DNA of 32,000 bases from Candidatus Harpocratesius repetitus (GCA_021498095.1 JAIZWK010000001.1:3720001-3752000), one strand, 5' to 3'. Shown: positions 6,231 through 25,672, counted from the first letter of the stretch. Translations and numbers: made by a program. The notes: generated by a model from the letters alone, not told the origin.

Positions 6231-6446
6231 ATCTTGATCAATCACAACTGTAATGATTAATTAATCAACCCGCTACCCTATAAAATTTTCTTCTTTTCGT
6301 TAACAATTCAATTGTAATTAACGCATTTTTGATCTATTCACTAAATAATACTTTGATCTCTCCTAATAGTTTAAATATAGAACTACAAAGAACATGTATT
6401 TTTTAATTGTACAAAAATTTAATTCTAACTGTAATTTTATTTAAAT

Positions 6447-7910: not shown

Positions 7911-7932
7911 TAAAAATAAGAAATTTTCTCAC

Positions 7933-7950
7933 TATATTATTTATATTATT
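7933..7950. repeat. Tandem duplication TATATTATT x2
   Basis: Read directly at 7933-7941 and 7942-7950. Confidence 0.7.
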
Positions 7951-7967
7951 CTTTTTTTCTTGCTAAC

Positions 7968-7987
7968 TGTTGATAAGTGTTGATAAG
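7968..7987. repeat. Perfect direct repeat TGTTGATAAG x2, candidate operator
   Basis: Read directly at 7968-7977 and 7978-7987, about 65 nt upstream of the GTPase-wHTH gene. Confidence 0.75.
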
Positions 7988-8051
7988 TTTTAATTAAAGA
8001 AGATCAAAAGTTATACCAAAGAATTTAGCAATAACTCACATCTTTTTATTG

Positions 8052-9563
8052 ATGGTAAAGAAAATAGTGTTAGTAGGATCGAGCTCAGCTGGAAAATCCA
8101 CACTGAGAAAATGGTTTTTCGAAGGGGAAAATATCTTTAAATTATTGGAAAATCCATTAGAGCCGACAATTAGTTATGAAAACAAATCTTACCGTTTCAT
8201 TCAAGAATTATATGTGTTCGATTTAGCCGGTCAAGAAGTAGATAGATGGTTTGGGAATCAGCAAGAAATTTTTGATGAAAGTGAAGTAATTATTAATGTT
8301 ATTGATGCTCGTAGCGCTCCAAAAATAATTACAGATTACATTACAAAAGCATTACCATTACAATCTAGCCGAGTGAAAGATGCGGATATCTTTTTTCTAA
8401 TTCATAAAGTTGATCTTATTGATACATTTCAGCAGGATAAAATAACCAAGGCTTTAAACGAACTAAAACGCAAAATAAATGAACAAGAAGGTGTTAGTTT
8501 TAAATGGTATTTTACCTCTATAAAACCATCCTATTTAGTTAGCACAATAAATGCTTTCGCAGATATTTTTAAAATATCAGGTCTTGATCGAGAAGCAAAA
8601 TTGAATATTAAATTGGTTCGCCTGAATACTGAGTTATTCCAAACACTTTCTGAGAAACACGAAGTTTCGATGGAAAATTTATCATTATTGCTAAAAGGAA
8701 CTTATTCTAAAATACAAAGCTTGGTCACATCTTATAAAGATTCAGGATTATTAGAAACAAAAGAAAAAAATGGAGTAATATTTGTTTCATTGACGAAAAG
8801 GGGAGAATCCTATTATGAACAAGTTATTAAAAGTATTGAATTGTTGTTTAAAGAAGAATTACATGAAAAGATTTCAGAAGAAGTGCCTTTTGAAGAAAAA
8901 ATTCAAATACCTTCTTATTGGATTTATGGAATTATGATTAGTGACTCAAATGGAAGAACATTATTAATTGCAGAAACATCAGATAACAGTTTGAAATCAA
9001 TATTAAATCGAGCAAATAACCCACAATTCGATCTTGAGTTAATTCCGATGTTTTTGAATGCAATGTCAAAATTTGCTGAAGAAATAAATGTTAAAAATTT
9101 ATCTAGTTTTCAAATTCAAGGCGGAAATTTACAAATGTCTTCATTATCTCGAGGAAATATAACATTTACTGTATTTTCAAATCCAGAATTTAAAATAGAA
9201 TTGGTTCAAGATGAAATAACTGCAATTTTTGACGAATTCTTTAATAATAATTTAAAATATATTAATGAATTTGAAAAATCAGGAAATGCTACTCCTTTTA
9301 TGGAATTTATTCCTGAAATTAGGGAAAAGATAGAATTAGTCATTAAGAATTACGTTAAAATTTTAAAAGAAATCTCATATTTCAGTTTTGATGAAGTAAA
9401 ACGGTTATATGATGAACTTTCTCATGTAAATGAAGATAAATTAACACTAGAAGAACAATTAAAGATAAAATCGCTAAAAGTCAAATTACTAGAAACTATA
9501 TTAAAAGAAAATGCTAAAGAATTTCTTGCAATAGAAGAAGATATACGTTCATGTATCAAATAA
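8052..9563 (+). CDS. Rag/Gtr-like GTPase fused to a MarR-like winged HTH and a longin domain
   Basis: G1 GSSSAGKST, G2 EPT, G3 DLAGQE, G4 HKVD, G5 TSI. Central LFQTL..VSMENLSLLL..SKIQSLV..SGLLE...VSLTKRGE fits a wHTH. C-terminal YGIMISDSNGRTLL..LIPMFLNAMSKFAEEI..PFMEF fits a longin. ATG at 8052 follows the TTG at 8049. Confidence 0.85.
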   Translation: MVKKIVLVGSSSAGKSTLRKWFFEGENIFKLLENPLEPTISYENKSYRFIQELYVFDLAGQEVDRWFGNQQEIFDESEVIINVIDARSAPKIITDYITKALPLQSSRVKDADIFFLIHKVDLIDTFQQDKITKALNELKRKINEQEGVSFKWYFTSIKPSYLVSTINAFADIFKISGLDREAKLNIKLVRLNTELFQTLSEKHEVSMENLSLLLKGTYSKIQSLVTSYKDSGLLETKEKNGVIFVSLTKRGESYYEQVIKSIELLFKEELHEKISEEVPFEEKIQIPSYWIYGIMISDSNGRTLLIAETSDNSLKSILNRANNPQFDLELIPMFLNAMSKFAEEINVKNLSSFQIQGGNLQMSSLSRGNITFTVFSNPEFKIELVQDEITAIFDEFFNNNLKYINEFEKSGNATPFMEFIPEIREKIELVIKNYVKILKEISYFSFDEVKRLYDELSHVNEDKLTLEEQLKIKSLKVKLLETILKENAKEFLAIEEDIRSCIK

Positions 9564-9761
9564 AGAATAGAAAAATAATTTCAATTTGATCTTTGATTTG
9601 GATGTCTATAACAATCATTCTTTTAAGTCCAGTAAAATTTGAAGCAGATTCTTTTTTTTCAGCCACAGTTAATAGAATTCTATCAGAATAGAATGATGGA
9701 ATTTTTATTGATGGCAGACTTTTAATCATTAGTTAAACTAAAAAAAAAGAAGGGAAAATAA

Positions 9762-10793
9762 TTGGTCCTTAAGCGCGCAACTCAAAAAACTGAAATACAA
9801 TCGCAGATCTCATCTAAATATAAGATAATCGTTGAAGGAATCCATAAAACATACTTGTTAGGTACCACTGCAGTCCCCGCATTAAGGGGAGTTGATCTAA
9901 AAATTAAACCTGGTGAATTTGTAGGTTTAATGGGTCCATCGGGGTGTGGCAAAACAACACTTTTAAATCTAATTGGGGGTCTTGATTATCCTACTCGAGG
10001 AAAAATATACTTAGATAATCAAGATATGTCAAGATTAGATGAAAATCAACTTGCAGATTTACGTCGAGACAAAATAGGTTATGTCTTTCAATTCTATAAC
10101 CTTCTCCCTCTGTTAACTGCTTTAGAAAATGTAATGATACCCCTTCATTTTCAAGGTAGATTATCAAAACGTGCAAGAAAACGAAAAGCAATGGAATTAT
10201 TAAAACTTGTAAAACTTGATGATCGCGCTGATCACACACCCTCTGAATTATCTGGTGGAGAACAACAAAGAGTTGCAATTGCCCGTGCATTTGCTAATGA
10301 TCCATCCATAGTATTACTTGATGAACCAACAGGTGATTTAGATTCGAAAACTGGAATTGAAATATTGAATTTATTACGAGATCTGAACAGAAAAGGTGCC
10401 ACTTTTATTGCAGCAACCCATGATGCAGCGGTTTCTGAATATTGCTCCAGAGTAGTACACTTAAGAGACGGAAAGATAATTACAGGATTAGAAATCTCTG
10501 GTCTGAAGGAAACTCCTGAAATGCGTGAAGCGCGATTAAAGCTTCAAGCTCAATATAAAGAAATGTGTGAAAATAAGATTTTATCAATAGTTAGAGAACA
10601 AATACAACAGCAAAAGTATGAAATCCGATTGGCTTTTATAAAAGAGCAAATTGATGATGAAATCATTACTAATTTACCATTGCATTTTGATGATTTAGTT
10701 GAAGAATTAATTGAACGTAAAGAATTTAACGGTCAAGTTAAAAGTGGTGTTATTTATATACAAAATCCTCAACAAGGATCTGATATCGTTTAG
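9762..10793 (+). CDS. ABC transporter ATP-binding protein, LolD/MacB/SalX family, with a ~100-aa C-terminal PCI-like winged-helix extension
   Basis: Walker A GPSGCGKTT, Q-loop GYVFQFYNLL, signature LSGGEQQR, Walker B LLDEPTGDLD, H-loop ATHD. TTG start. Confidence 0.93.
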   Translation: MVLKRATQKTEIQSQISSKYKIIVEGIHKTYLLGTTAVPALRGVDLKIKPGEFVGLMGPSGCGKTTLLNLIGGLDYPTRGKIYLDNQDMSRLDENQLADLRRDKIGYVFQFYNLLPLLTALENVMIPLHFQGRLSKRARKRKAMELLKLVKLDDRADHTPSELSGGEQQRVAIARAFANDPSIVLLDEPTGDLDSKTGIEILNLLRDLNRKGATFIAATHDAAVSEYCSRVVHLRDGKIITGLEISGLKETPEMREARLKLQAQYKEMCENKILSIVREQIQQQKYEIRLAFIKEQIDDEIITNLPLHFDDLVEELIERKEFNGQVKSGVIYIQNPQQGSDIV

Positions 10794-10835
10794 TACTTTA
10801 AGAAGATTTACTTCAAGGAGATTGAAATAGCATCA

Positions 10836-13703
10836 ATGAATACATTTCTTTGGACTTATGCAATTAAAGATTTATTTCGTCAGAAAACCCGAACTTTATT
10901 CGGTATTTTGGGGATAACTGTAAGTTTACTTCTATTAACTTCTGTTTCTATTATCACAGACTCAGTCTCTTATAATTTTATTGACTTTCTTACACTCGAT
11001 GCTGGAACACAGGATATGGTTCTTTCAAAAAGACCAATTTCCACTAATGATGAAAATTTTACAGGATATTTTGATTTTCGAGAAATAATTCCAAAAATTC
11101 ATAATGCAACTAATGAAATAGGGAATATAGTTCCTAGAGGATATTTTAGAAGTGAGATTTTTAACGGAAATGAAACAATGGTGTCAAATCAAAACAAGAT
11201 GTGGATATGCGCAATAGATATTGCTTTAGAAGAAGAAATAAAATTTGGTTCATTTCAAAATTTGAATAATAACCTAAATATTTCAAATGGTTTACCTGTT
11301 AATCAATGTATAGTTTCTGAAAGTTATGCTAGAACAAATCAACTTAATATAGGAGAAAAAATCCATCTTTTCGTTAAACCATTAAACTCAACAATAAACC
11401 TTACTATTGCAAGCACATATGGTCAAAAATTGAAATTTCCTATCGACGAAGAACCTGAAATCATAGTAGATCTCACTTGGTGGGGAAACATTGCAGATTT
11501 ATTTAATAATAATTCTAATTTTGCTGAAAATAATACATGGAATTATAAAGTTAATAGATTACTACTCAAACTCAGTGATGCTGAAGGAGTGTATGATGTT
11601 CGCAATGTTAAAGGAACAGAGAGTTATATTGCTCAGATAGGTGCAAAAATCTTAACAGAATTAGGATTAGATTCGTGGAAAATGGATTATCCAAAATTAG
11701 AGTTATTGTTTGTATCTGAATTTTTAACTTTAACTATGAATATTTTATTTATCACCATTGGAATTATTTCTATGCTTATTTCAGGTATTTTAATTAATGC
11801 GATTCTTTCAACTTCTGTAGAAGAGAGAATTAAGGAGTTTGGAATAAATAGAGTACTTGGTGCACGAAAAACATATAATCTGAAATTAATCTTAATTCAA
11901 AGTTCATTTATTTCGTTTAGTGGAACAACTTTAGGAATTATTTTAGCCGCTTTAGCAATAAGATATATTGGAATACCATTTGGAGAAAGATTGCTGGTTG
12001 AAAATGGGATTTATACTTCAATTGCCTTTTTTATAGATCCAATGACAATCATTTCCTCTTATCTTATAGGTGTAGGAGTCTCAATGGTTGTCTCTATTTC
12101 TCCAGCATTAAAAGTTATGCGAATGAAAATTGTCGAAAGTATTAATCCATATAGAACATCTGATGAAGTATACCATATGGAAAAAGAAGGAAGTGCCAAT
12201 GTCCGCCTTATAATTATTGGAATTATATTGGCTGCAAATGCTGGGTTCATCTACTTCTTGCTTCCGCGAATAATTATTTCTTTTCAATTCGGAATTCTTG
12301 CCTCAGTTTTAATTATCACCATGATGGTATTCCTAATCGGCGTTTCAGTAATGGCAATCGGATTTATGCCGATATTAATTCGATTACTTGTGAAGATATT
12401 TGAAACATTTAATCAAAAACTGATGAATATTGTAAGAATCACAGTTCACAGATATCAACGTCGCAATTTGTCGACAAGTATCATGTTTGTACTCTCTTTT
12501 TCCTTTATAATTTTTACAACAAGTATGGTTCAAATCCAGATTAAACAAGTAGGTGGTTTAATTCAATATGAAGAAGGTTCAGATTTAGTCCTTCGACCAG
12601 ATAGCTATGATTTAAGAGCACCAACAGTAGCAATCACAGAAAAATTATTGCAAATAGATGGAATTGAGCGGGTTTCTTCAGTAATTGCAAGTGTAAACGA
12701 TTTAGAAGACATATATTCTGAAGAAAATAAAGATTTTGAAATCACCCTAGGGGATTATATTAACTTTCAATCTACTGAAGTAAGGATGTATGCAGTAGAT
12801 GAAAATTATATCGATACAGTTTATCAAAATTATATCATATTTACAGAAGGAAATAAAGAGTCGGCATTTAATGCTCTTTACAATACTTCTGAAATAGGAG
12901 TTATAATTTCTGCTTCAATAGCTTCAAGTCTCAGAATTCATTTAGGAGATATTGCAAGATTAACAATCACTAGAGGCACGGAAGAAGAACCATTTCTTTG
13001 CAGAATTGTTGGAGTTGCAAAGTCCATGCCCGGGATGCAATCACGCTTCAGTGAAAGCGGAATTGGTGCAGCTTTTAGAGCCGGTGGTGTTTTGATATCC
13101 CCAGAGCACTATACAGAATGCATGAACATTCCTGGTGGAAATGATGCATTTTTAGATAAAATCTTTATTAAAGTAAAATCAGGTTATGATCCTTTAAATG
13201 TTGCATCCAATATTGAATCTAAATTAAAAAATAATTATAAAATAGAAGTGGATGTTACCTCTCAAGGAATTAATGAAGCAGAGCAAGCATTTTTAGTTGT
13301 CAAATATTTATTTCTAGCAATTTTAATTGGAACTGTACTAATTGCATTATTTGGATTAATCAGTTCATCATATTCATCTATCTTAGAAAGAAAGCGAGAA
13401 ATTGGAATTTTACGAACATTAGGTCTTCATGGTCGAGAAATTGAACACTTATTCTTATTAGAAAACTTAATACTACTATTATCAAGCTCAACTTCAGGAG
13501 GTATTATCGGATATTTAATGGCGCTTGGTTTGAGTGAAAATATGACCCTTTTTATCCGAAGTCCGCGAATTATTGCCGTGCCATGGGATATTATCTTGAT
13601 TGTTTATTCAGTATCACTAGTTACTTTATTTATTGGAATGAGATGGTTAATGCGCAAATTAAGAAAGCAAAATCTAATAGAGATATTTAGAGAAACATTA
13701 TAA
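10836..13703 (+). CDS. ABC permease, FtsX/MacB (SalY/LolE-like) family, tandem two-module type (permease A)
   Basis: N-terminal RQKTRTLFGILGI before TM1, a large extracytoplasmic domain, SVEERIKEFGINRVLG and ILERKREIGILRTLG FtsX motifs, and many hydrophobic helices. Confidence 0.92.
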   Translation: MNTFLWTYAIKDLFRQKTRTLFGILGITVSLLLLTSVSIITDSVSYNFIDFLTLDAGTQDMVLSKRPISTNDENFTGYFDFREIIPKIHNATNEIGNIVPRGYFRSEIFNGNETMVSNQNKMWICAIDIALEEEIKFGSFQNLNNNLNISNGLPVNQCIVSESYARTNQLNIGEKIHLFVKPLNSTINLTIASTYGQKLKFPIDEEPEIIVDLTWWGNIADLFNNNSNFAENNTWNYKVNRLLLKLSDAEGVYDVRNVKGTESYIAQIGAKILTELGLDSWKMDYPKLELLFVSEFLTLTMNILFITIGIISMLISGILINAILSTSVEERIKEFGINRVLGARKTYNLKLILIQSSFISFSGTTLGIILAALAIRYIGIPFGERLLVENGIYTSIAFFIDPMTIISSYLIGVGVSMVVSISPALKVMRMKIVESINPYRTSDEVYHMEKEGSANVRLIIIGIILAANAGFIYFLLPRIIISFQFGILASVLIITMMVFLIGVSVMAIGFMPILIRLLVKIFETFNQKLMNIVRITVHRYQRRNLSTSIMFVLSFSFIIFTTSMVQIQIKQVGGLIQYEEGSDLVLRPDSYDLRAPTVAITEKLLQIDGIERVSSVIASVNDLEDIYSEENKDFEITLGDYINFQSTEVRMYAVDENYIDTVYQNYIIFTEGNKESAFNALYNTSEIGVIISASIASSLRIHLGDIARLTITRGTEEEPFLCRIVGVAKSMPGMQSRFSESGIGAAFRAGGVLISPEHYTECMNIPGGNDAFLDKIFIKVKSGYDPLNVASNIESKLKNNYKIEVDVTSQGINEAEQAFLVVKYLFLAILIGTVLIALFGLISSSYSSILERKREIGILRTLGLHGREIEHLFLLENLILLLSSSTSGGIIGYLMALGLSENMTLFIRSPRIIAVPWDIILIVYSVSLVTLFIGMRWLMRKLRKQNLIEIFRETL

Positions 13704-13798
13704 AATAGTTAATAATTAGGAGGCGTGAGAAAATTACTATAAAAAGAAAATTTAAAATACTTTTGCATGAGTTTTTTATTCAAAAAAACCGAAAAAGC

Positions 13799-16700
13799 AT
13801 GAAACAAAGATTAATATTGACTATTCTATTATTCTGCTTTCTTTCACCTTCAATTTTACTTAGTTTTCAAAATAATTTTATTAAAATAAGATTAGAAAAT
13901 AATAATAATAATAAAACCAAACCATCAATTTTTTCTCCAATTTCATCTGACATATCTGGAAATGAATTATATGCAGAGCAAATTAAGTTTAATATTGGTG
14001 GATCTCACAATTTAATTCAACAATCTTATTGTACTAATGACACCAACGCACTAGATGGAATTGATTTATCAGATCCTGCATTTTCTGAAGCTGCATTTTT
14101 TTTAACTCTATCGAATGGAATTATCCCTGAAATCAATCCTTATCCAATTAACAACAAGAATCCGAATTATATACCCATTTCTATGAATTACTTCAAGTTT
14201 TATCTATATTTTGAAGGAGGAAGTATTTCGAAAAATATATCCACCCAACAAGATAGAATATTAGAAATTCTTAAAAATAGACTTAAAATAGATTTTCTCC
14301 TTTTAAATAAAACTGAAGATCCTAATAAGGGATATTTATATGAATATTATGGTTTGACACCAGAATGGAGTAATTATTTTGATTTAACTTTATCAAATGT
14401 ACCTCAAGATGGATATTGGAAAACACTAGATTATGACCGAATTCTCTCAAATTCCTATTTAGATACACATTATATTCAAAGTTCATTACTTTACTTGAAG
14501 AAATTTGATTTTTTAAAGAATGGTATAAATTCAATGATTTATGATCAGATTAAATTATCATTTGATCTCTCTCCTCTACAGAGCAGTAATTCACTATTTA
14601 ATGTAGCATCTTTTCAAAATACCAATGCTGATTCAAATGATCAATCAAATACAAATTCAAGCGAGAAATCCTATATTAATAGAACAAATAATTTAATTTT
14701 CTTTTCTGTACAATATGAAGGAATTGAAAATTCTGAAATACAACAAAAATCTCACATTTATCATTTCAATCTTTTTGAAGCGTTAAATTTTAATGGTTCT
14801 GAAATTTCAATATCTTCTAAATGTTATAATTCTCCAGACGGAATATCATTAAGTAAAATCGATATTGGGTTAATATTTGGAGAAGTTACTAAAATGGAAC
14901 CAGATATTTTTCCATTCAATACAGCGAGCTTCGACCAGATTGAAAATCTTCTCTATATGTTTAATGAAGATGCAGATTTTTCGTTTTTTGATGATTACAG
15001 TTTCAAAGTCAAATGGATTACAAAAAATTCGTTAACCATGTTATCAACTGTTCCTGTAAATTATAAAAATAGTTCAGATTATGTAAATTTCTTAGAATTA
15101 CTTATGGATTTTCCAGAACTGGCATCATTACTTAATATTTCAATGGATGTTTCGGGAGGTTTTGGATTTGGATTATCTGGCAGTTATATTGCTCCAATTG
15201 AAGAGCTTTCATTCGATTATATCATTGCTCCAGTTGAACCATCTCTTGAAATTAGGAAAGAGATTAAATCAGGCAAACCAACAAATGTTTTAGATGCAAA
15301 CAATAGTCCAACAATAGATGTCGTTGTAAGTAATCCAAATAACTTCTCAGTTTGGGGAAAAGAACTTAATTTAACTGCATTAGGAATTACAAACAATCCA
15401 ACAGCAAAATTAACTATTTTAGGTTTAGATCAAAATATGTTTGAATTAATGGGTTATAACAGTGATTTAATTGTTAATATTTTAGAATCTCTAGGTTATA
15501 CCATTGAAGATCTCTTTCATCAAGACAATCCGCGCTTTTTTATGTTGGATTTGAACAATACAGGAAACTATAATACGCTTTATCCAAATCTTCTAGATCT
15601 AAATGTTAATAGATTATTTCCTTACAGTCCTGAATTTACTCAACTTCTTATCGATAATGCAGATGCATTTGGTAGAATTGCATTGAACCCACAGATTTGG
15701 AATTCTTCAGAAAGTATCTTCAATCCAGAGAATTGGAAATTAGACCCAGGTGAAAACTTCTCAATTACAATAAATAGTGGTCTTTTAAATGTGAGCGATA
15801 AATATGCTAAGATTCAAGGATTCTCATTAAATACTCGATCACCTCATGAACCAATTATTGCAATAGGTCAAGAAAATATAGAAACTTCAGCCAATAATAC
15901 ATTTTTTCCAAATGATGATTTATTCTGGGAAATTTCTTCTGAATACTACGGAAATACATACCAGATTCAACAATATCTTTTTTTTAATAATAATACAAAA
16001 ATTCTTCATATTAATAATAATACAATAAGTCTGGATGCGATTTTTCTAAATTTAATTGCAAAGAGTAGCAATCAAGATACAAGTTTCCAAATTGAAATCT
16101 ACAATCATGATTATACAGGAGAAAACAGAGATGGATTTCAATCAATTTTAAGTGGAACTATAGGTAATGAAATGACTCAGATTAATTTAACACTATCAAA
16201 TAATGACTACAATTTAAGCAATTTCTGGGATAAAAATCAGAATATGGATATTTTGTTCAGAATTACATATGAAAATAATGAACCCTTCAACTTCTATCTT
16301 GATTTTATTCAAGTAGAATTTCAAGATCGTATAAATCAAAGAATTTTTCATAATCAATCTCAAATACTTTATTGTTCATCATATGGAAATAATCAGTACT
16401 TCAGTAAATCGAACTCAATTACATTAATGACTTCTCAAAGTGCAATTATATCAATATCAAGCCAAATTTCATTAATAGATAATAAATCTTCACTGTATTT
16501 GTATAACGTATCCTTAGAAAATATTGGAACACTTCCTGCATATAATATTACGGTAAAATTGCTCCAGATGGGCAGAATTCCGAATTTACTTAATCATACA
16601 CTAATACAAATTGCAAATAAAACAACATTTCAAAGTATTGCTGGAAATTATTCTTTAACAGAAGGAATTTTATCATTTTCATATAGAAATTTAACAAACC

Positions 16701-17791
16701 AGCAGAAAATTCAAAATATTTCATTGTTATTTTATCTTCCAAATAGTATTATTTTTCCTTCACTAAATGTAAGTTGGAATAACGAAATTCAATTTAATGA
16801 AACAAATACTCAAATGAATGCAATTTCATATCAAGATTTCCTTTCATTCCCTTTAGATTATAATAAATCGAGAAATTATAATCCACTATATCAATTATTA
16901 ATCGAATATCTCAATCCAGATGATTCTAGTTATTATAAAATAAATCAGAATGTTTCTATATTTATTCGTATTTCTAACTTAAATTCAGAGTCGATTTTTG
17001 GAATAGATCTTCAATTTAGCAAATCTTTTGAAGGATGGCAATATTTGAACCAATCAGATCATATTTATATAAATGAATTAAGTTATAATCAATCTAAAAC
17101 GATTGAATTAATCTTTTTTAAGATAAATACTCGTGGATATTTGCTCCCTTCAGCATTCCAAATTCATTGTGAAGAGAATAGTTTATTACAAGTATTTTTA
17201 CCGCCACCTCTTTTACTAGGTCATTTTGAGGTAGAATTAACTAAAGCAATTTCCCAAGATGTGTTAATAACAGGGGATTATATTGAAATTACAATAAATA
17301 TTAAGAATTCAGGAACAATTCCTTTATCGGATGTAATTATTGATGATGCGGATTCATATTTTGCAGGAGCATTTATCTTATATGAAGGTATAACACTTCA
17401 AGAAATTAGTTTTCTTGACATAAATCAAACCTTTGAATTTCATTATTCGCTTAGAGCTTTACATTCAAAGGGTTCTTATAGTATACGTCCTGCAGAAATA
17501 TCATATTTCTTCGGATCTTTATATTACGTTTATAGTAATTCGATTTTAGTTAAAATTCAAGAGCCTTATATATTGATAGTAGCAAAAATTATCAGTCCGA
17601 TATTAGTAGGTGGATTAGCGTTATTTTTAACATATAAGTATAAAATTCATTATTCAAAAGAAGATTTTGAATATCAACGCCGTGAAAGTTTGTTATTTGG
17701 TCAATCATTAAGAGAATCTTCATGGCATCGAAAGAATCTAACAGAATTTTTCAATGAGCAAATGGAAAAAGGTGGAAAAAAAAATGAGTAA
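13799..17791 (+). CDS. Large membrane-anchored cell-surface glycoprotein with C-terminal DUF11/CARDB/BatD-like Ig domains
   Basis: Signal-like MKQRLILTILLFCFLSPSILL from ATG 13799 (track start 13763 is TTG). Many N-x-S/T sequons. VELTKAISQDVLITGDYIEITINIKNSG is a DUF11-type motif. TM helix at about 17570-17640, then a ~50-aa charged tail. Confidence 0.85.
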   Translation: MKQRLILTILLFCFLSPSILLSFQNNFIKIRLENNNNNKTKPSIFSPISSDISGNELYAEQIKFNIGGSHNLIQQSYCTNDTNALDGIDLSDPAFSEAAFFLTLSNGIIPEINPYPINNKNPNYIPISMNYFKFYLYFEGGSISKNISTQQDRILEILKNRLKIDFLLLNKTEDPNKGYLYEYYGLTPEWSNYFDLTLSNVPQDGYWKTLDYDRILSNSYLDTHYIQSSLLYLKKFDFLKNGINSMIYDQIKLSFDLSPLQSSNSLFNVASFQNTNADSNDQSNTNSSEKSYINRTNNLIFFSVQYEGIENSEIQQKSHIYHFNLFEALNFNGSEISISSKCYNSPDGISLSKIDIGLIFGEVTKMEPDIFPFNTASFDQIENLLYMFNEDADFSFFDDYSFKVKWITKNSLTMLSTVPVNYKNSSDYVNFLELLMDFPELASLLNISMDVSGGFGFGLSGSYIAPIEELSFDYIIAPVEPSLEIRKEIKSGKPTNVLDANNSPTIDVVVSNPNNFSVWGKELNLTALGITNNPTAKLTILGLDQNMFELMGYNSDLIVNILESLGYTIEDLFHQDNPRFFMLDLNNTGNYNTLYPNLLDLNVNRLFPYSPEFTQLLIDNADAFGRIALNPQIWNSSESIFNPENWKLDPGENFSITINSGLLNVSDKYAKIQGFSLNTRSPHEPIIAIGQENIETSANNTFFPNDDLFWEISSEYYGNTYQIQQYLFFNNNTKILHINNNTISLDAIFLNLIAKSSNQDTSFQIEIYNHDYTGENRDGFQSILSGTIGNEMTQINLTLSNNDYNLSNFWDKNQNMDILFRITYENNEPFNFYLDFIQVEFQDRINQRIFHNQSQILYCSSYGNNQYFSKSNSITLMTSQSAIISISSQISLIDNKSSLYLYNVSLENIGTLPAYNITVKLLQMGRIPNLLNHTLIQIANKTTFQSIAGNYSLTEGILSFSYRNLTNQQKIQNISLLFYLPNSIIFPSLNVSWNNEIQFNETNTQMNAISYQDFLSFPLDYNKSRNYNPLYQLLIEYLNPDDSSYYKINQNVSIFIRISNLNSESIFGIDLQFSKSFEGWQYLNQSDHIYINELSYNQSKTIELIFFKINTRGYLLPSAFQIHCEENSLLQVFLPPPLLLGHFEVELTKAISQDVLITGDYIEITINIKNSGTIPLSDVIIDDADSYFAGAFILYEGITLQEISFLDINQTFEFHYSLRALHSKGSYSIRPAEISYFFGSLYYVYSNSILVKIQEPYILIVAKIISPILVGGLALFLTYKYKIHYSKEDFEYQRRESLLFGQSLRESSWHRKNLTEFFNEQMEKGGKKNE

Positions 17792-20700
17792 ACAATACTA
17801 TACTAAAAAATTCTCTTATTTTCTTTTTATCTCTTTAATTCTTCTTTCTAGTACCTTATTAGCAAATAATCCAGTTAGTTTTATAAATTCACAACATATT
17901 CAAGAAAAAACTAATACAATTAATAAATTGATATCTAGGAACGACAACAACATCAAAAACGTTCAAATTAAAAGTGCTTCAAATCCATTCGATAATAAAA
18001 CACATAGATTTTTATTTTTATATTCAAATCCAATTACAATAGATGATAATGTAACATTATTTAACCTTTTCACTTCTCTAGGAGGAATTATTAAAGAAGA
18101 ACCTTGGAACCACATTAATGGATTTTCAGGAACAATAAACAATTCACAAGAATACCTGGGTTCCTTTATAGCCTCTTTTCCTCCAGTGGATTATTTTGAA
18201 GATCCAATAGCAGAAATTCAAATGAATTCAATTCAAGATCAGATTAACTACTACCCAGAAATATACAATATGAATAATTTTAGCATTAAAGGAACTTCCA
18301 ACGCATCGATAGCGATAATTGATACTGGTGTTGATATTTCCCATCCATTTTTTAATAATTCTTATCAAGATGAAAATTTTTCAAAGAAAATTATTGGATG
18401 GACAGATGGAATTTCCAATTTCAGTCAACCTTATGATGATAATGGGCATGGAACTGCAATGAGTGCTATTATTGGGGGGAGTAATAATGTTTCAGCTATG
18501 TCCAATCATTCGAATAATGAATTTTACCTTACTAAAACTGCATCCATTAATCATGAAGAATATTTCTATCCACATTATCTTTCTGAAGGATGGTATGATA
18601 TTAAATTAGGATCTTTTGAAATGGATGAAAATGCATTAGATATTCTTAATATTACCGCAAATCTGACCATATTTTCACCTATGCTTGAATATAGGTTAAG
18701 ATTGTATAGAAATGGAAATATTATTAATGAAACTTCCAGTATTCCATTAGAATTAACATGGGACACTTCAGGATTTTTCGATACTTCCAAAAAACCAGGA
18801 GTTTATGATATTGTTTTTTCTTATCATAAAAATCTTGAACAGAATCCACAATTTTCGATACAAATTCAAGCATTATTTACTCCTAAAGAATATCCTAGTG
18901 ATACAAGCGAATATTCTGGTTTAGCACCAGAAACACATATTTCAATGATAAAAGAATTGAATTCTTCAGGTAAAGGATATATCTCAGATATAATTTCTGG
19001 ATTAGAACATGTTATCACTAAAATTCAATCAAAGCATATAATAACTCTCCTACTTTCAATCGCAACGATAGAGATTCCTTCAAGTTTGGAGAACCCGTTC
19101 AAACAACTAATTGATGAAATTATAAAAAAAGGTTGTATGGTTATTTTTGCAGCTGGAAATTTCGGAATATCAAATAAATTAAACGCAATGGCACTTAATG
19201 ATAAAGCTTTAGTTATAGGAGCGACCAATGATCAAGATCAACTAACCTATTATAGTTCTCAAGCTGATGATAATAAGAACAATCGTATGCCTGATCTATT
19301 AGCCCCAGGAGGTAGTTTATTAGTCAATCATCAAATGGTAATTACTGCAGATTCGAATATGGGAGATAATAATAACCAAACAAAAGATTTAATAAAAAAT
19401 GATTTATCTGGTTTTACCGGAACTTCAATTTCAGCAGCAGTTGTAGCGGGAATTTACAATTTAATTGTTGATTATTTAGGCGGATGGAATTATTGGAATT
19501 CAGGAATAAATGCTACCTTAGAAGCTTTGAAAATAAAAAATTACCTTTTAATGACAGCTTCAGAGACAAACCAAGCCCGCGAAGATAATCCTTTCACACC
19601 ATATGATGAATCTACAAATAGTCCTATAGTAAATAGAGGTCAAAAAGATAGATTTGAGGGTTATGGTAGAATGAATCCAGAAGCAGTATTTAATATGCTC
19701 CAAAATAGCATTGATTTAAACCATAATTACCAGATAGAACTTACTGCATCAAATAGTGATCCATTCTCGCAGCACGTTTTTGCACTTAATGTTTCACTTG
19801 AAAAGGACCAAATTTATCTTTTTAATTTGACAAATGATGAAGGAATTTTTTCAAATTTTGATATAGATATGTATTTATACAATAAAGATTGTTCATTCTC
19901 AGGAGAGCCGATTTTAGAAGCATCTTCGACGCAAGCGGGCAGTTCAGATGAAATTATTTATTTTACTAATCTAAATGCCAGCGATACTTTTTACTTAGTT
20001 ATTAAGGCTTTATCAGGTTCTGGTTCATGTTCATTACAAGTCACGAAAGTAAATTTGACAAATGCTCCAGCATTAAACAATCCAAAAGTGAATATTGATT
20101 CAGAACTAAATTACAATGATACATTAGACACTTACCGATTTGAAGTTAATTACACACAAGATGATAATGTTCCAGCGACTTTAATTGATATAATCTTTCC
20201 TTCTTTGTCTAAAAATTATTCATTAATTCAATCTGTTGAAGGAGACACTAATTATGAAAATGGTGCGATTTATTATGTTGAAGTTAAATTTCAGAATCCT
20301 GGAAATTATTCATATTACTATTTTGCCAGAACAGGAAATTTATCCATCTATTATTTGAAAAACAATTCTCAATCTCTAATTATCAATCCAATTCATCATT
20401 TTGTTGGCAATAATTTCACCACAGTGCATAATTCAGACATCAATCTCTGGGATTTTGATCAAGATTCAAAAAATATTTACTTAAATAATAAAATGAATGA
20501 ATATAGAATAGGATGGCAAAAAATTAGTATTCCACAATTATATGAAAACCGATATTTACGCACTCAAGAAGACAACTGGTCTGCTTGGTATTTTGGAATT
20601 GCTAATCCTAACAATTTATATTCAAGCCCCATCCTAATTGATCAAACTCCTTTATATACTTATGAAAATATATCAGGAACTTATGATTTATATTCTCCGA

Positions 20701-22712
20701 TTATCTTTTTAGAAAGCAATAATAATGAATCATTTTCTCCAATTCTTTCTTTAGGAATGAGATTAAGTATTAACGAAGGTGATTCTTTAACCTTAGAAAT
20801 CAATCCAAATCGATCAAATTGGAAATTATTAGATTCTTGGACATATAATCAATTCGATTGGAGTATGCTTCATTATAATCTTTCTGAATACAAAGGGAAT
20901 TATGTCCAAATTAGATTGCGAATTGTAGCAAGTTCTAATAAATGGATTTACAAAAAGGGTGTTCTTTTAGATCATTTTTCAGTATCTATGAAAAATAACA
21001 GTAATTCTCACGAACCTATGTTAAGTGCTGCTTTTTCACCCGAAAATCAAGAAATTCCTCTTTATCAATCTACAAATGGAACAGATTTTGAAAATATTCA
21101 ATTTACAATAGGTTACTGGGATGAAGATGGAAATCTACCAGAAATAATATTATTAGAAATTAATCACCAAAATTATACATTGTTCAATCAACAAGGTATT
21201 TGGGAAACAGGTAGTTTTACAAATTCATCTGAAAATGAGATTATTTATTCAGCATTCCTTTCATGTGTAGATTTTTCAAATACAACCTTCAGGTTTCATG
21301 CATTTGATTCAAAATTCAGTGTTTCTACTAACTGGTTTGAATTAAAGGATTTACAAAAAGCTTCAAGCCAACAATTTCCAATTGATAATCCAATTGAAGA
21401 AAAAACAGCATTGATTGGAGGATATCCATCTAATCAATCGTTTTCATCTTGGAATGACCAAATAGCAGGTTGGCATCAAATAAAGAACTTGAATAATTCA
21501 TATCAACCTAAAGAATGGTACTCTGGTGCAGGAGATTATTTAGGCTATGGCCATAATTATAAATCAAGTCTATATTCACCTGTTCTTAATATAAATGCAA
21601 GTCATGAAGTTTATCTTTTTCTAACACATAGATTAAGATTTGATAGTGATGGAAATGATGGAAATGATTTTGCTGAAATATTAATTTCAGACAATTACGG
21701 AAAATCTTGGAATTCATTAATGAAATTTAATGAAGAAACGGTTGGTTTAGATTTTAAATCTATTGCCATCGATATTACTAATTATAATTTTAAGAATGTG
21801 ATTCTTCAATTCTATTTCTCAACGGATAATTCAGGAGATCCGATACAATATACAGGGTGGAGAATCAGAGAAATTTCTATTAACATTAATATATCAAAAG
21901 ATTATATCAAACCAAATCTTATTTTAGACGGATTTTCTGATAGAGATACAATTAGTGGAATTTTTAACTTTACTGTGTTTATTCAAGATGATTCTCCCAT
22001 TGATTTTTCTCGAACTGAAATGTGGATCGACAATCATCGAATTGATGTAATGATTAATAGAAATAACACAATTTCAGTTTTAATAGATACCTTAAAATAT
22101 GATAATGGATATCCTTTAGAAATCATACTGGTAGTTTATGATATAGAAGGAAACCGTGAATTTGAAAAAATTACATTATTTGTTTATAATCCTCCGAGTC
22201 CATTATCAATTATTTTATATAGCTTTACAGCAGTTTTTGGAGCCATTGTACTTGGAAAATTTGTTTATTCTCAGATTAAAATTCAGAAATTGAAGAAAGA
22301 AGGAAAATATGTTAGAAAACCTAACTTCTTCGAGCGCCGTCAACAAGTTAAATTTGAAGCAGAACAAATTCGAGAAGAAGCGCGTTTAATCTTAAATAAT
22401 TTGGATAAAGAATGGGAAAAAGCACAACCAATAAAGTTATATTGTAAAAAATGTAAACGACTCTATTTAGGAGAAGAATTTGAATTATTCTGTCCACATT
22501 GTCAAGCAGCAACACTTTATGTAGCAAAATATTGCCCTGCATGTAAAATATGGAATTATTTTGATGACGATAACCCGAATAGTAAGTGTAAAAAATGTGA
22601 TCTTATACTTCTTAAAGATTTTGATAAAGCTAAAGAATTTGTTATTACCAGTCAATCTGAAGGAATATTTGAAGATATACATGAACCAAGAGTGGAGGAG
22701 AGAGAAACATGA
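17784..22712 (+). CDS. Membrane-anchored S8 subtilisin-like serine protease with multiple beta-sandwich domains and a cytoplasmic double zinc ribbon
   Basis: Signal peptide and I9-like prodomain. Catalytic Asp IAIIDTGVD (18321), His DDNGHGT (18447), oxyanion Asn FAAGNFG, Ser FTGTSISAAVVAG (19425). TM helix at about 22200-22275. Cys motifs CKKC, CPHC, CPAC, CKKC at 22443-22598. ATG 17784 overlaps the upstream stop and follows GGTGGA. Confidence 0.92.
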   Translation: MSKQYYTKKFSYFLFISLILLSSTLLANNPVSFINSQHIQEKTNTINKLISRNDNNIKNVQIKSASNPFDNKTHRFLFLYSNPITIDDNVTLFNLFTSLGGIIKEEPWNHINGFSGTINNSQEYLGSFIASFPPVDYFEDPIAEIQMNSIQDQINYYPEIYNMNNFSIKGTSNASIAIIDTGVDISHPFFNNSYQDENFSKKIIGWTDGISNFSQPYDDNGHGTAMSAIIGGSNNVSAMSNHSNNEFYLTKTASINHEEYFYPHYLSEGWYDIKLGSFEMDENALDILNITANLTIFSPMLEYRLRLYRNGNIINETSSIPLELTWDTSGFFDTSKKPGVYDIVFSYHKNLEQNPQFSIQIQALFTPKEYPSDTSEYSGLAPETHISMIKELNSSGKGYISDIISGLEHVITKIQSKHIITLLLSIATIEIPSSLENPFKQLIDEIIKKGCMVIFAAGNFGISNKLNAMALNDKALVIGATNDQDQLTYYSSQADDNKNNRMPDLLAPGGSLLVNHQMVITADSNMGDNNNQTKDLIKNDLSGFTGTSISAAVVAGIYNLIVDYLGGWNYWNSGINATLEALKIKNYLLMTASETNQAREDNPFTPYDESTNSPIVNRGQKDRFEGYGRMNPEAVFNMLQNSIDLNHNYQIELTASNSDPFSQHVFALNVSLEKDQIYLFNLTNDEGIFSNFDIDMYLYNKDCSFSGEPILEASSTQAGSSDEIIYFTNLNASDTFYLVIKALSGSGSCSLQVTKVNLTNAPALNNPKVNIDSELNYNDTLDTYRFEVNYTQDDNVPATLIDIIFPSLSKNYSLIQSVEGDTNYENGAIYYVEVKFQNPGNYSYYYFARTGNLSIYYLKNNSQSLIINPIHHFVGNNFTTVHNSDINLWDFDQDSKNIYLNNKMNEYRIGWQKISIPQLYENRYLRTQEDNWSAWYFGIANPNNLYSSPILIDQTPLYTYENISGTYDLYSPIIFLESNNNESFSPILSLGMRLSINEGDSLTLEINPNRSNWKLLDSWTYNQFDWSMLHYNLSEYKGNYVQIRLRIVASSNKWIYKKGVLLDHFSVSMKNNSNSHEPMLSAAFSPENQEIPLYQSTNGTDFENIQFTIGYWDEDGNLPEIILLEINHQNYTLFNQQGIWETGSFTNSSENEIIYSAFLSCVDFSNTTFRFHAFDSKFSVSTNWFELKDLQKASSQQFPIDNPIEEKTALIGGYPSNQSFSSWNDQIAGWHQIKNLNNSYQPKEWYSGAGDYLGYGHNYKSSLYSPVLNINASHEVYLFLTHRLRFDSDGNDGNDFAEILISDNYGKSWNSLMKFNEETVGLDFKSIAIDITNYNFKNVILQFYFSTDNSGDPIQYTGWRIREISININISKDYIKPNLILDGFSDRDTISGIFNFTVFIQDDSPIDFSRTEMWIDNHRIDVMINRNNTISVLIDTLKYDNGYPLEIILVVYDIEGNREFEKITLFVYNPPSPLSIILYSFTAVFGAIVLGKFVYSQIKIQKLKKEGKYVRKPNFFERRQQVKFEAEQIREEARLILNNLDKEWEKAQPIKLYCKKCKRLYLGEEFELFCPHCQAATLYVAKYCPACKIWNYFDDDNPNSKCKKCDLILLKDFDKAKEFVITSQSEGIFEDIHEPRVEERET

Positions 22713-25633
22713 ACTTAATTAAGTATACTTTTCATGATCTTAAAAAACAAAAAGTAAAAACCATTTTTGGAATATCAGGTGTTTTAGTTAGTATATTTTT
22801 ATTAACTGTAGTTGGTACTTTATCTGATTCTTTGAGTTTTTCTTATTTGGATCAAGCTACAAGCGAGTCTGGTTCCGCAGATATTTCAATTACGAAAATT
22901 ACAACCCAAGATTTTAACTATAATCCATATTTTGACGAATCCATCATATCAGAAAAATTAGAAGGATCAATTCCTGAAATTGACTCATTTTTCCCCCGAA
23001 TTTGGAATATAATGCAAGTAGAAAAATATGATGAAATAATAAATCTAAATGTCAGAAAATCAATAATTGCTTATGGAATTAATAGTACTTTAGAACAAAA
23101 TAGTGGCGAAATGGGAAATCTTTGGCTGTGTGAAAATGATCCAGATTATACACGCACTGAAAAGACATTTACAGGCCCGATACGTGATGATTTTTGTGTT
23201 CTATCGAGAGGAGCTGCAAGACTATATCATGCACATGAAGGAGATGAAATCACAGTAAAATTTGGTAGCACCGAAAAAACTTTTATTATTCAAGCAGTTG
23301 TAGAACAAGAGTTACGATTTTCAAGAATAGAATCAACTTTAATTATTTTTGAATTGCAAGTTGCTCAAGATTTAATGAATCAAGAAGGAAAAATTAATTC
23401 TATACAAGCAACAATAAAAGATCCCCAAAATTTTTATGATACTCGAAATATCGGTGCGAGTTTAAGTAAACTTAGAATTATTGCAGAAAAAGTTCAAATT
23501 ATCATGGGATTTGATTATCAAGTTTCCCTTCCAAAAATGGAACAAGTTGAAAATATTGAACAGCAATCAACAATGATGACAATAACCTTCTATTTTATTA
23601 CGGCATTCTCGATGCTTATTACAGGTATTCTGATAAACTCGATTTTAACAACTTCTGTCGAGGAGCGAATCAGGGAGTTTGGAATACTGCAAGTTGTCGG
23701 CGGAAAACGATCTTTTTCATTCAAAATGGTTTTACTATCAGGATTCTTTATAGCGATCACAGGAACAGCCATTGGAACGTTTTTAGGTGCAGTTGTGGCA
23801 CCTCCCGTATTAAATTGGATCTTTGAATATTTTGATATATGGATCATTCCTATGAAATTCTTAATACTACCTCGCACAATCATTCGTTCACTTTTAATAG
23901 GTATAATTATCACAAGTATAATTGCTGTATTTCCTGCGTTCCGAGCAAGTAGATTGATTATTGCAAATGCAATAAATCCTGCTCGAAAAAATGATACTGG
24001 AGAAAAATATAGATTGAAAAAGGAAGGTTCAGCAAATTTAAAACTAATAGGTATCGGATTTGGTATTGCTCTAGCTGGAATTTTTATCTTTCTGGTTATC
24101 CCTCGGTTATTATCTGGTTCTGGTGGAATTAACTTAACGAATTATGTTTTTATGATTGTACTTCTTTTAATTTTAATTGGATTAGTATTAGCAACAATTG
24201 GATTTGTTCCGATTCTGGAAAGACTTATCGGACTTTTAATTAAACCCATGATTTCAAGATATTATCCAATATATAGAATAAATCTAATTCGTTATCGACG
24301 TCGCAATACTGGAAATATCTTAATGTTTGCATTAACATTTGCATTTATTTTCTTTATATCATCAGTTCTTGAAATGAGTACTGCAAATAATTCAATGTTT
24401 TTTGAATTTCAATATGGTTCAGATTTGGTAATGTCAAATACTGGAACAATTGAAGATGACAATGCAATTACAATGCAACTATTTTATGAATTACAAGAAT
24501 TACCAGGTATACGAAGTGCTGCACCACTGTACTCTAACAGCCCAATTGATTTTGCAAAGATTACCTCTGCGATTTTTAATATTGGTCAAGAAGGAGTAGA
24601 TGATATTTTAAGTTTCAGTGATCTTTTTGGAACTATCCCAAAACTCACATCTTTTGCGGGAGATTTGGGAGATTATCACAATTACTACTGCAATATTTTC
24701 GGTATTGATGAAAATTTTTACAATACAATAGATAGGAGTATGCTTTTATGGGATATGGATGGAAATAATGATTTAATTGAACAAGTTGTTCAATCCACAA
24801 AAAAATGTATTATTGGGAAAAGTTTAGCAGATGGTCTTGGAATATCTTCTTTGCCAGCTCAAATTAAAATTTCAATCTTGGAATCTGAAAATGATAATCC
24901 TGATCGTGGAAATATTACTGTTTTTGAAGTAATCGGAGTTTCTAAAGGTATACCTGGAATATGGAATTTTCGCTCAAGTGAAGCAAACTTAAATATGGCA
25001 CCAGGTGTTCTCATAAGTGCTGCAGATTACTGCGAAATCATGAACTGGGGCGATCCTACAGACCCAAATACAATATTGGATAAAATTTTAATTAATGTGG
25101 TTGATAATGATTATCAAAGCGTAAAAGATATTCAAAATTATGTAAAAAATTATTTTTCTGATGATTATAAATTTATCTTAGACGAGCCTGAAACATTGAT
25201 AAGATTTATGGATAATGCAAATACGACATCAAATATCGTGATGCAAGTAATTCTCTTCTTCAGCATCGTCGTCAGTCTTTTTGGATTAATTTCATCAATG
25301 TATTCAACAATAATTGAAAGAATGTTTGAAATTGGTATTTTACGGGCAATGGGAATGAAACCTTATGAAGTGAGGATTATGTTAATGGCTGAAGCAGTAA
25401 CTATTATGATATCTTCTGGAAGTTTAGGGGCAATCATTGGCTGGTTTATCGCTTATTTACTGCAAACAAATGTGGCGATATTAACAGAATTACCTGTTGT
25501 AACAGCGATTAGTATAGGAACTTTAATATCGACTTTTGCAGTATCTATAGGTATAAGCATTATTGGAATGTTTTTTATTACTCGAAAAGTTCATAAAATG
25601 AATATTATGGAAGTTTTAAGACATACGTTTTAA
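22709..25633 (+). CDS. ABC permease, FtsX/MacB family, tandem two-module type (permease B)
   Basis: KQKVKTIFGISGV, SVEERIREFGILQVVG, IIERMFEIGILRAMG; clear paralogue of 10836-13703. ATGA overlap with the protease stop. Confidence 0.92.
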   Translation: MNLIKYTFHDLKKQKVKTIFGISGVLVSIFLLTVVGTLSDSLSFSYLDQATSESGSADISITKITTQDFNYNPYFDESIISEKLEGSIPEIDSFFPRIWNIMQVEKYDEIINLNVRKSIIAYGINSTLEQNSGEMGNLWLCENDPDYTRTEKTFTGPIRDDFCVLSRGAARLYHAHEGDEITVKFGSTEKTFIIQAVVEQELRFSRIESTLIIFELQVAQDLMNQEGKINSIQATIKDPQNFYDTRNIGASLSKLRIIAEKVQIIMGFDYQVSLPKMEQVENIEQQSTMMTITFYFITAFSMLITGILINSILTTSVEERIREFGILQVVGGKRSFSFKMVLLSGFFIAITGTAIGTFLGAVVAPPVLNWIFEYFDIWIIPMKFLILPRTIIRSLLIGIIITSIIAVFPAFRASRLIIANAINPARKNDTGEKYRLKKEGSANLKLIGIGFGIALAGIFIFLVIPRLLSGSGGINLTNYVFMIVLLLILIGLVLATIGFVPILERLIGLLIKPMISRYYPIYRINLIRYRRRNTGNILMFALTFAFIFFISSVLEMSTANNSMFFEFQYGSDLVMSNTGTIEDDNAITMQLFYELQELPGIRSAAPLYSNSPIDFAKITSAIFNIGQEGVDDILSFSDLFGTIPKLTSFAGDLGDYHNYYCNIFGIDENFYNTIDRSMLLWDMDGNNDLIEQVVQSTKKCIIGKSLADGLGISSLPAQIKISILESENDNPDRGNITVFEVIGVSKGIPGIWNFRSSEANLNMAPGVLISAADYCEIMNWGDPTDPNTILDKILINVVDNDYQSVKDIQNYVKNYFSDDYKFILDEPETLIRFMDNANTTSNIVMQVILFFSIVVSLFGLISSMYSTIIERMFEIGILRAMGMKPYEVRIMLMAEAVTIMISSGSLGAIIGWFIAYLLQTNVAILTELPVVTAISIGTLISTFAVSIGISIIGMFFITRKVHKMNIMEVLRHTF

Positions 25634-25644
25634 GAAAGTAATTA

Positions 25645-25672
25645 TTTATTTTGTTTTGTTTTTTTTTTTTTT
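25645..25672 (+). terminator. Oligo-T terminator of the ABC/protease operon
   Basis: T-rich stretch ending in a run of 14 T at 25659-25672, just after the TAA at 25631-25633 in a convergent intergenic gap. Confidence 0.6.

Follow-up and report, generated by a model that had tools for sequence, protein, structure and literature searches.

The 32,000-nucleotide (nt) stretch of Candidatus Harpocratesius repetitus analysed here (the window; G000:C1:3720001-3752000, part of a closed 4.36-Mb genome) contains, at positions 9762-25633, five co-directional genes on the plus strand that encode an ATP-binding cassette (ABC) ATPase, two FtsX-type permeases (A and B), a large anchored surface protein and an anchored subtilase of peptidase family S8. 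Judged by sequence, the ABC parts are of the type VII (MacB/FtsX) kind. The reading we put forward, to which we give about an even chance of being right, is that the unit specifies two YbbP-like ABC modules that are served by one ATPase and act on their partners by mechanotransmission, with the large protein as scaffold and the subtilase as a lineage-specific hydrolase arm. It is based on the finding that the core recurs not only in orthologous loci but also in paralogous and rearranged ones, on the precedent of the Escherichia coli YbbAP-TesA complex and on the scaffold role of PIG-T, a protein whose fold is predicted for the head of the large protein. In our literature search we came upon no paper in which the cluster is treated as a system.

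The layout proposed by an earlier, sequence-only reading of the window (five co-directional genes with two gaps (42 and 95 nt), two overlaps (8 nt and ATGA) and a closing T14 run) was confirmed from the list of open reading frames (ORFs), their translations and the junction DNA. All coordinates below are those of the window, and all features of the unit lie on the plus strand. The ATPase gene (9762-10793, 343 amino acids (aa) from a TTG start) is followed after 42 nt by permease A (10836-13703, 955 aa) and this, after 95 nt, by the gene of the large protein (13799-17791, 1330 aa from an ATG start, with an in-frame TTG upstream at 13763). The latter overlaps by 8 nt (ATGAGTAA) with the S8 protease gene (17784-22712, 1642 aa, with the ATG at 17754 as an alternative start), which in turn overlaps by 4 nt (ATGA) with permease B (22709-25633, 974 aa). 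Behind permease B the T14 run, read directly at 25659-25672, lies in a 53-nt convergent spacer beyond which a minus-strand Metallophos gene is found, and it is likely an archaeal oligo-T terminator. The 95-nt spacer before the large gene (13704-13798) far exceeds that of relatives (3-30 nt or an overlap), and contains an AT-rich TTTAAAATA element ~40 nt 5' of the large-gene ATG that may be an internal archaeal promoter. A scan for bacterial-type promoters and terminators gave counts not above those of shuffled sequence and is uninformative for an archaeon.

The unit is conserved across the Asgard order that includes Prometheoarchaeum, Lokiarchaeum and Harpocratesius, the families of which are labelled f1-f4 here. 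A profile of the large protein found full-length matches in 12/13, 1/1 and 102/135 genomes of three families and divergent matches in 4/4 genomes of the fourth; elsewhere in the phylum it matched only via its last domain, in small proteins. Twenty loci were sampled over the families, and in all 17 that came from f1-f3 the order ATPase-permease A-large protein-S8-permease B was observed (one of them, L011, reaches its contig end within the S8 gene). Both large genes are therefore present in the ABC cluster of every sampled f1-f3 genome rather than absent from those of most relatives, in line with the conserved five-gene unit that had been proposed. Three metagenomic contigs show the identical order. 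Across the loci in which the order is kept, the large proteins share only 25-48% identity and the genes meet at short or overlapping junctions, and order and tight junctions persist at 25-30% identity where the flanks differ (L006, L007 and the f3 loci). Members include P. syntrophicum MK-D1 (G142; large protein DSAG12_01731 / QEE15904.1, S8 protease QEE15903.1) and L. ossiferum B-35 (G137; large protein NEF87_004158), and the closest named relative of the large protein belongs to a Candidatus Harpocratesius sp. (90% identity), in agreement with the Asgard origin that the sequence-only reading had guessed.

An S8 profile searched against 154 genomes of the order found, among the matches listed, a full-length S8 protease beside the large protein on the same contig and strand in ~95 places. 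The exceptions to this adjacency were contig breaks (G149, G266, G277 and G278) and one genome, G188. This single-contig genome holds a piece of the large protein (profile positions 4-940, G188:C1:1580450-1583233) and, 1.5 Mb away, a piece of the S8 protease (positions 939-1604, G188:C1:3104167-3106191); decay, rearrangement or misassembly could account for the separated pieces. In genomes without the large protein (g13 and most of g18) the S8 matches were catalytic-domain paralogs only, and within genus g18 both proteins were present in the same two genomes, G170 and G174. Since kin are not independent, we see in this joint loss a pattern rather than statistical evidence.

The subtilase is not part of the constant core. 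In family f4 (loci L025, L026 and L038, from G281, G280 and G282) the cluster consists of ATPase, permease A, large protein and permease B, with no protease; f4 is a family of higher GC content, and a long insert is present in the C-terminal domain of its ATPase. L. ossiferum B-35 has in addition a paralogous locus (L037, G137:C1:2016200-2033500; minus strand, genes at 5218-15097), again with no protease, in which permA' and ATPase' are followed by a relative of the large protein that has 1059 aa and by permB'; this relative is without the CBM-like (carbohydrate-binding-module-like) domain and the cytoplasmic tail. In distant metagenomic variants, relatives of the large protein of 1136-1246 aa adjoin two permeases of ~950-1040 aa, one of which is too divergent for Pfam, and no protease was found. 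The Pfam-less gene of ~960-1040 aa in these variants was considered as a relative of the S8 protease and rejected, as the shared motifs, judged by eye, look like those of a divergent double permease. From f4, the paralogous locus and the distant variants it follows that the constant core is the large protein plus the two fused permeases, and that the S8 protease is accessory, added or lost in particular lineages. The sequence-only reading had put the protease at the heart of the machine, a position it does not hold in these loci.

The ATPase matches Pfam ABC_tran (E 3e-39), and its top NCBIfam matches are LolD (8e-69), MacB (3e-64) and FtsE (4e-63), with every equivalog cut-off missed (231.5 bits versus 307.75 for LolD and 212.9 versus 264.85 for FtsE). 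A MacB/LolD/FtsE-type nucleotide-binding domain spans residues 21-240; Walker A, Q-loop, signature, Walker B and H-loop are legible in the protein and invariant in 20 orthologs. Family-specific is a C-terminal domain of ~100 aa (10479-10790), retained by every ortholog, by f4 and by the paralog and found nowhere else in the genome, for which Pfam and Atlas feature searches yielded nothing usable. A complex prediction with two ATPase copies, the zinc-ribbon tail of the S8 protease and zinc scored 0.00, which has no bearing either way.

Each permease contains two matches to Pfam FtsX (E 9e-27 and 1e-25), and NCBIfam scores are far from the cut-offs (FtsX_Gpos 20.5 versus 225, lolCE 36-58 versus 362). 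Hydropathy predicts ~10 transmembrane (TM) helices for both in a 4+2+4 pattern, with ectodomains between TM1-2 and TM7-8, which in permease A correspond to residues ~43-287 and ~571-822. Permease A is a fused double FtsX unit with LolF, MacB, YtrF and LolC/E as solved relatives; as to a possible Porter/Sabre fold of the ectodomains, MacB_PCD was matched (E 6e-9) only in the second one of permease A, and the orthologs match this family weakly or faintly. Permeases A and B are paralogs that share this topology and 30% identity over their full length, and a search of the genome with permease B (E up to 1e-5) gave full-length matches to A and B alone. Pfam, NCBIfam and the solved relatives thus agree with the earlier assignment to the MacB/FtsX type. 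Since a permease with its two ectodomains is a pseudo-dimer fused into one chain, it presumably binds two ATPase copies.

The large protein has an N-terminal signal, an ectodomain and, by hydropathy, one C-terminal TM helix (aa ~1255-1277, at ~17561-17629), followed by a cytoplasmic tail (17630-17788) that is conserved, strongly so within the family, and for which Pfam and Atlas feature searches yielded nothing usable. Its orthologs across the order measure 1280-1346 aa. Structures were modelled with AlphaFold2 on 25 orthologs, giving an ectodomain model of 1195 residues (me3aa3cae116e; predicted local distance difference test (pLDDT) 81, predicted TM-score (pTM) 0.72) and a model of the head domain (m7b4f4a163b8f; pLDDT 80, pTM 0.76). 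The N-terminal ~430 residues (13958-15238) are predicted to form a 'rib-cage' head like that of PIG-T/Gpi16, a likeness that is new here and that was seen with VIA, Foldseek and the ESM Atlas, in each case with a predicted model as the query. In VIA the head matched the lumenal LbT1 lobe of human PIG-T and yeast Gpi16 (chains 7w72_T, 7wld_T and 9ub7_E) with Z 16.1, 15.6 and 12.7 (271 residues at a root-mean-square deviation (rmsd) of 4.0 for the best), the next folds being a GPI-mannosyltransferase subunit (8.1; GPI, glycosylphosphatidylinositol), the FMO protein (6.9) and ribophorin I (5.4). In Foldseek all top four matches of the head were PIG-T (E 1e-10 to 1e-7, top probability 1.00), with the next at 1e-4, and the first row of the ESM Atlas search was a Gpi16 cluster (269 residues at rmsd 4.1, model against model). 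The whole 1195-residue ectodomain gave only generic matches to multi-immunoglobulin (multi-Ig) proteins in Foldseek, so that the PIG-T signal is clear only via VIA and with the isolated head. When the full model was compared with PIG-T residues 26-476, 355 residues were aligned between model residues 19 and 1094 at rmsd 5.6, with ~560 residues of extra domains intervening. Pfam Gpi16 (PF04113) had no match at E up to 10, neither in the 25 orthologs nor in a six-frame search of the genome, and the likeness is therefore described as one of fold.

The region after the head is mixed Ig/helical and leads to three domains for which VIA gave Z 9-13 each, namely a CBM/jelly-roll-like domain (15800-16333), an Ig/pilin-like domain (16346-16858) and a CLIPPER/DUF11/MG-like domain (16880-17227). 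Profile positions 800-1157 of the large protein also matched DUF11/CARDB repeat proteins. The membrane-proximal part is a TRAP-beta-like Ig domain (17225-17467; Pfam TRAP_beta, PF05753), which scored 26.4 bits versus a cut-off of 22.4 and was matched in 25/25 orthologs (best E 1.7e-17); solved TRAP-beta chains gave a weak profile match. BLASTP of the large protein and the S8 protease against each other found no common domain. N-X-S/T sequons exceed composition shuffles (37 versus 22, z 3.6, and 43 versus 25, z 4.0), and the earlier label 'glycoprotein' is only a putative one for the large protein; glycoproteomics of P. syntrophicum reported little glycosylation overall (PMC11284389). The sequence-only reading had suggested, among other roles, that the protease processes or sheds the large protein. 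With its predicted PIG-T-like head, its TRAP-beta-like stalk and its conserved tail, and being found in every variant, the large protein looks like a scaffold or partner and not like a mere substrate.

The subtilase matches Pfam Peptidase_S8 (E 2e-31) and has an N-terminal signal peptide and, by hydropathy, one C-terminal TM helix (22209-22265). Its catalytic residues D180, H222, N459 and S548 (codons at 18321, 18447, 19158 and 19425) stand in canonical motifs, with an insert of ~140 aa between His and Asn. They are retained in 21/22 orthologs, as expected from the earlier identification of the gene as a subtilase, and in an alignment of 20 orthologs S548 is invariant and D180, H222 and N459 are kept in at least 90%; on this evidence the anchored protease is apparently an active enzyme. 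Between the catalytic domain and the TM helix lie ~830 aa of beta-rich domains, an accessory region for which Pfam and Atlas searches gave weak matches only (InhA-like MAM, E 0.06). On the cytoplasmic side a charged helix precedes two zinc ribbons with eight cysteines (22443-22598; Zn_ribbon_15, E 3e-5), all eight of which are invariant across the order. In genera g2 and g7 the S8 matches (G131:C109, G132:C2 and G143:C272) begin at profile position 90-125, with in-frame stops (TGA/TAA), which may reflect a disrupted N-terminal signal and pro-region or sequencing errors.

In the mechanism that we propose, a single ATPase would power two paralogous YbbP-like type VII permeases, and, in the manner of other type VII systems, ATP binding and hydrolysis in the cytoplasm would move their ectodomains, probably with no solute carried across the membrane. 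The large protein would be the constant extracytoplasmic partner and scaffold, its PIG-T-like head and TRAP-beta-like stalk being roughly level with the permease ectodomains and its TM helix and conserved tail linking it with the complex in the membrane. The subtilase, anchored, apparently active and with its zinc ribbons in the cytoplasm, would have joined in most lineages, giving an ABC-scaffold-hydrolase assembly, the targets of which may be cell-surface proteins or substrates lifted off the membrane surface by the permeases. Our observations cover the gene unit with its conservation, the protein families and their topologies, the catalytic residues and the predicted folds, whereas the physical assembly, the mechanotransmission, the scaffold role and the substrate are what we infer here. 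Conserved cytoplasmic features are found on all three non-permease proteins, which speaks in favour of such an assembly.

Several points weigh against this mechanism. The likeness of the large protein to PIG-T, seen in a predicted model, is at the level of the fold only, and the mechanism offers no reason for two complete permeases. The C-terminal domain of the ATPase is kept in loci that have no S8 protease and in L037, where the large protein has no tail, and is thus dependent on neither. An internal promoter could be present in the 95-nt gap before the large gene, and the public sequencing runs listed for this DNA were the likely source DNA run and small shares, with no RNA run among them. 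Finally, a KaiC-like gene, acdA and the Metallophos gene are also syntenic in close relatives, so that the conservation within f1 is partly general synteny.

The rival that survives best, although we consider it unlikely, is a biogenesis or extraction system in which the ABC modules insert, extract, release or quality-control the C-terminal anchors of the two giants, these being its clients. The type VII systems LolCDE and YbbAP, which pull hydrophobic groups out of the outer leaflet (PMC12646458), offer the precedent, both large proteins bear C-terminal anchors, and the genes are tightly linked. However, the conserved cytoplasmic tails and the zinc ribbons suggest that the anchors stay put with partners of their own, the PIG-T-like head, needless in a pure client, is kept in every variant, and the two permeases persist even where there is one large protein.

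A further possibility, which we regard as improbable, is that the permeases lift a membrane-embedded substrate to a subtilase held by the scaffold, with surface proteins shed or re-anchored as the outcome. Such a machine would be an archaeal counterpart in function to YbbAP-TesA, its precedent, and more distantly to the GPI transamidase; the PIG-T-like fold and the role of PIG-T in lipid-substrate binding (PMC9098846) point the same way, as does the claimed Asgard ancestry of GPI-transamidase components, which is stated for the complex with its subunits unnamed in the text (PMC12872458). The S8 protease is missing in f4, the paralog and the distant variants, however, which indicates that proteolysis is not the core activity, and with ~830 residues between it and the TM helix the N-terminal catalytic domain may be far from the membrane. 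Moreover, Pfam Gaa1, PIG-U and Gpi16 were all unmatched in this genome (PIG-S was not searched for). The sole match to Peptidase_C13 (legumain/PIG-K) in the genome is weak (26.9 bits) and falls in a 556-aa ORF 3.7 Mb from the window (265-1935 in L041, G000:C1:34814-38113). That a PIG-T-/TRAP-beta-like scaffold, a protease and membrane-extracting permeases cut or exchange the anchors of surface proteins, and so form a prokaryotic counterpart, and possibly the source of parts, for a GPI-transamidase-type apparatus, is in our estimation a long shot.

The retained S8 active-site residues and the CBM/jelly-roll-like domain of the large protein would also fit a nutritional module, in which the subtilase digests environmental proteins for these archaea, which ferment peptides, the large protein captures substrates or adheres to particles and the ABC part only supports or regulates this, and P. 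syntrophicum is known to express a peptide-type solute-binding protein strongly (PMC11284389). Type VII ABC systems are, however, not importers and no binding protein is encoded in the unit; as this explanation also accounts neither for the S8-less core nor for the cytoplasmic zinc-ribbon tail, we hold it to be quite improbable. Very improbable is the remaining view that there is no physical coupling and that a SalXY/MacB-type efflux or peptide-resistance ABC system merely sits in an inherited neighbourhood: the top NCBIfam matches of the ATPase do include bacteriocin and darobactin exporter ATPases and flanking genes are likewise syntenic among close relatives, but order and tight junctions are kept at such low identity despite changed flanks, the core recurs in the paralogous locus and in rearranged distant variants, parts are lost together, and the permease A and permease B genes have the large genes between them.

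The window as a whole is rich in A+T and closely packed with genes for Ras-, Rab- and Rag-like GTPases. One of these, a Rag-like GTPase with winged-helix and longin parts (8049-9563), lies directly upstream of the ATPase and is syntenic with the operon in several f1 genomes (L004, L007, L009, L010 and L012); it is missing in L006 and the f3 loci and is therefore probably outside the unit. We also found small proteins in other Asgard families for which the match to the large protein is confined to its TRAP-beta-like domain and TM helix, of 190-206 aa (L033:7925-8494 and L035:7971-8588), the size of eukaryotic TRAP-beta, or of 460-480 aa (L029-L032 and L034). None of these small TRAP-beta-like proteins adjoins FtsX-type permease genes.

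Asgard cells have no wall or regular S-layer, and the proteins that decorate their membranes are thought to act in contacts, adhesion and crawling (PMC13716822, PMC11284389). An S-layer connection had been raised in the sequence-only reading, which pointed to SalX/SalY-type pairs beside S-layer-domain proteins in other archaea. A literature search for an archaeal SalXY beside an S-layer-domain (COG1361/COG1470) protein found nothing, Atlas rows named COG1470, COG1361 and CARDB are weak leads (scores 0.75-0.78, TM-score about 0.2), and relatives of the organism appear to be without an S-layer (PMC11284389). The cluster is one of few large surface systems conserved across an Asgard order and, being present in both long-cultured species, is directly testable. 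It would add an archaeal member of unusual build, with two fused permeases and anchored partners, to the type VII ABC systems that work by mechanotransmission. The Asgard 'TRAP-beta', as annotated, is here a giant multidomain protein with a head that resembles, in its predicted fold, a second eukaryote-specific protein of the endoplasmic reticulum (ER), PIG-T, which bears on the claimed Asgard ancestry of the ER protein-processing machinery.

Several known systems share parts with the unit. The closest solved protein to the S8 protease is Tk-SP of Thermococcus kodakarensis (3afg), which has the same S8 domain, D-H-S triad, oxyanion Asn and C-terminal beta domains; unlike Tk-SP, the Asgard protease has a C-terminal TM anchor with a cytoplasmic double zinc ribbon, the ~140-aa insert between His and Asn, and a gene inside an ABC operon. 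FtsEX (with EnvC-amidases, PcsB, CwlO or RipC) and LolCDE also combine an FtsE/LolD-type ATPase with ectodomains that do the work, the output being control of envelope hydrolases or membrane extraction. The Asgard proteins, in contrast, score far under the FtsE, FtsX, LolC and LolE cut-offs of NCBIfam, their permeases are fused doubles, and neither peptidoglycan nor lipoprotein carriers are involved.

With TRAP-beta (SSR2) the large protein shares the membrane-proximal Ig domain followed by a TM helix and a tail. TRAP-beta is, however, a Sec61-associated protein of ~180 aa, whereas the large protein is seven times longer, with ~1100 extra residues, and is encoded in an ABC operon. The protein of MK-D1 that belongs to the unit, DSAG12_01731, was called a TRAP-beta homolog (PMC11284389), and a different MK-D1 protein, WP_147662978.1, was taken as TRAP-beta elsewhere (PMC11417166, Table S1). 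PIG-T is a scaffold that holds a protease beside multi-pass membrane subunits, and the part of it next to the membrane contributes to lipid-substrate binding and keeps the protease PIG-K stable (PMC9098846). The large protein resembles PIG-T (7w72, 7wld, 9ub7) in the predicted fold of its N-terminal lobe (the lumenal LbT1 'rib-cage'), perhaps in its type I build, in which a beta-sandwich is followed by a single TM helix near the C-terminus and a short tail, and in its genetic pairing with a protease and multi-pass membrane proteins. It differs from PIG-T in the ~560 residues of extra domains from head to stalk and in the TRAP-beta-like domain before the TM helix, and its protease is a serine S8 enzyme that is dispensable in some lineages, whereas the partner of PIG-T is a C13 cysteine protease.

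The closest known system is E. coli YbbAP-TesA (PDB 9GE6-9GE8), a type VII ABC-hydrolase complex in which YbbP, with 10 TM helices (4+2+4), binds two YbbA and carries TesA on its two ectodomains (PMC12646458). The earlier statement that no version of such a system with an embedded protease has been described therefore needs to be qualified. A sequence search of solved structures at E 0.01 returned no YbbP chain, and no SGNH gene is present in the five-gene unit. In both systems the permease is a fused 10-TM protein whose two ectodomains follow TM1 and TM7, the ATPase is a separate MacB-type protein, and a neighbouring gene encodes an extracytoplasmic hydrolase, in the Asgard unit the presumed functional partner; a mechanotransmission logic is presumably shared as well. 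They differ in that YbbAP-TesA has one permease and the Asgard unit two paralogous ones, in the hydrolase (small, soluble SGNH-type TesA versus a 1642-aa anchored S8 protease with a zinc-ribbon tail), in the constant 1330-aa protein and the ATPase C-terminal domain that are added in the Asgard unit, and in the archaeal, single-membrane host.

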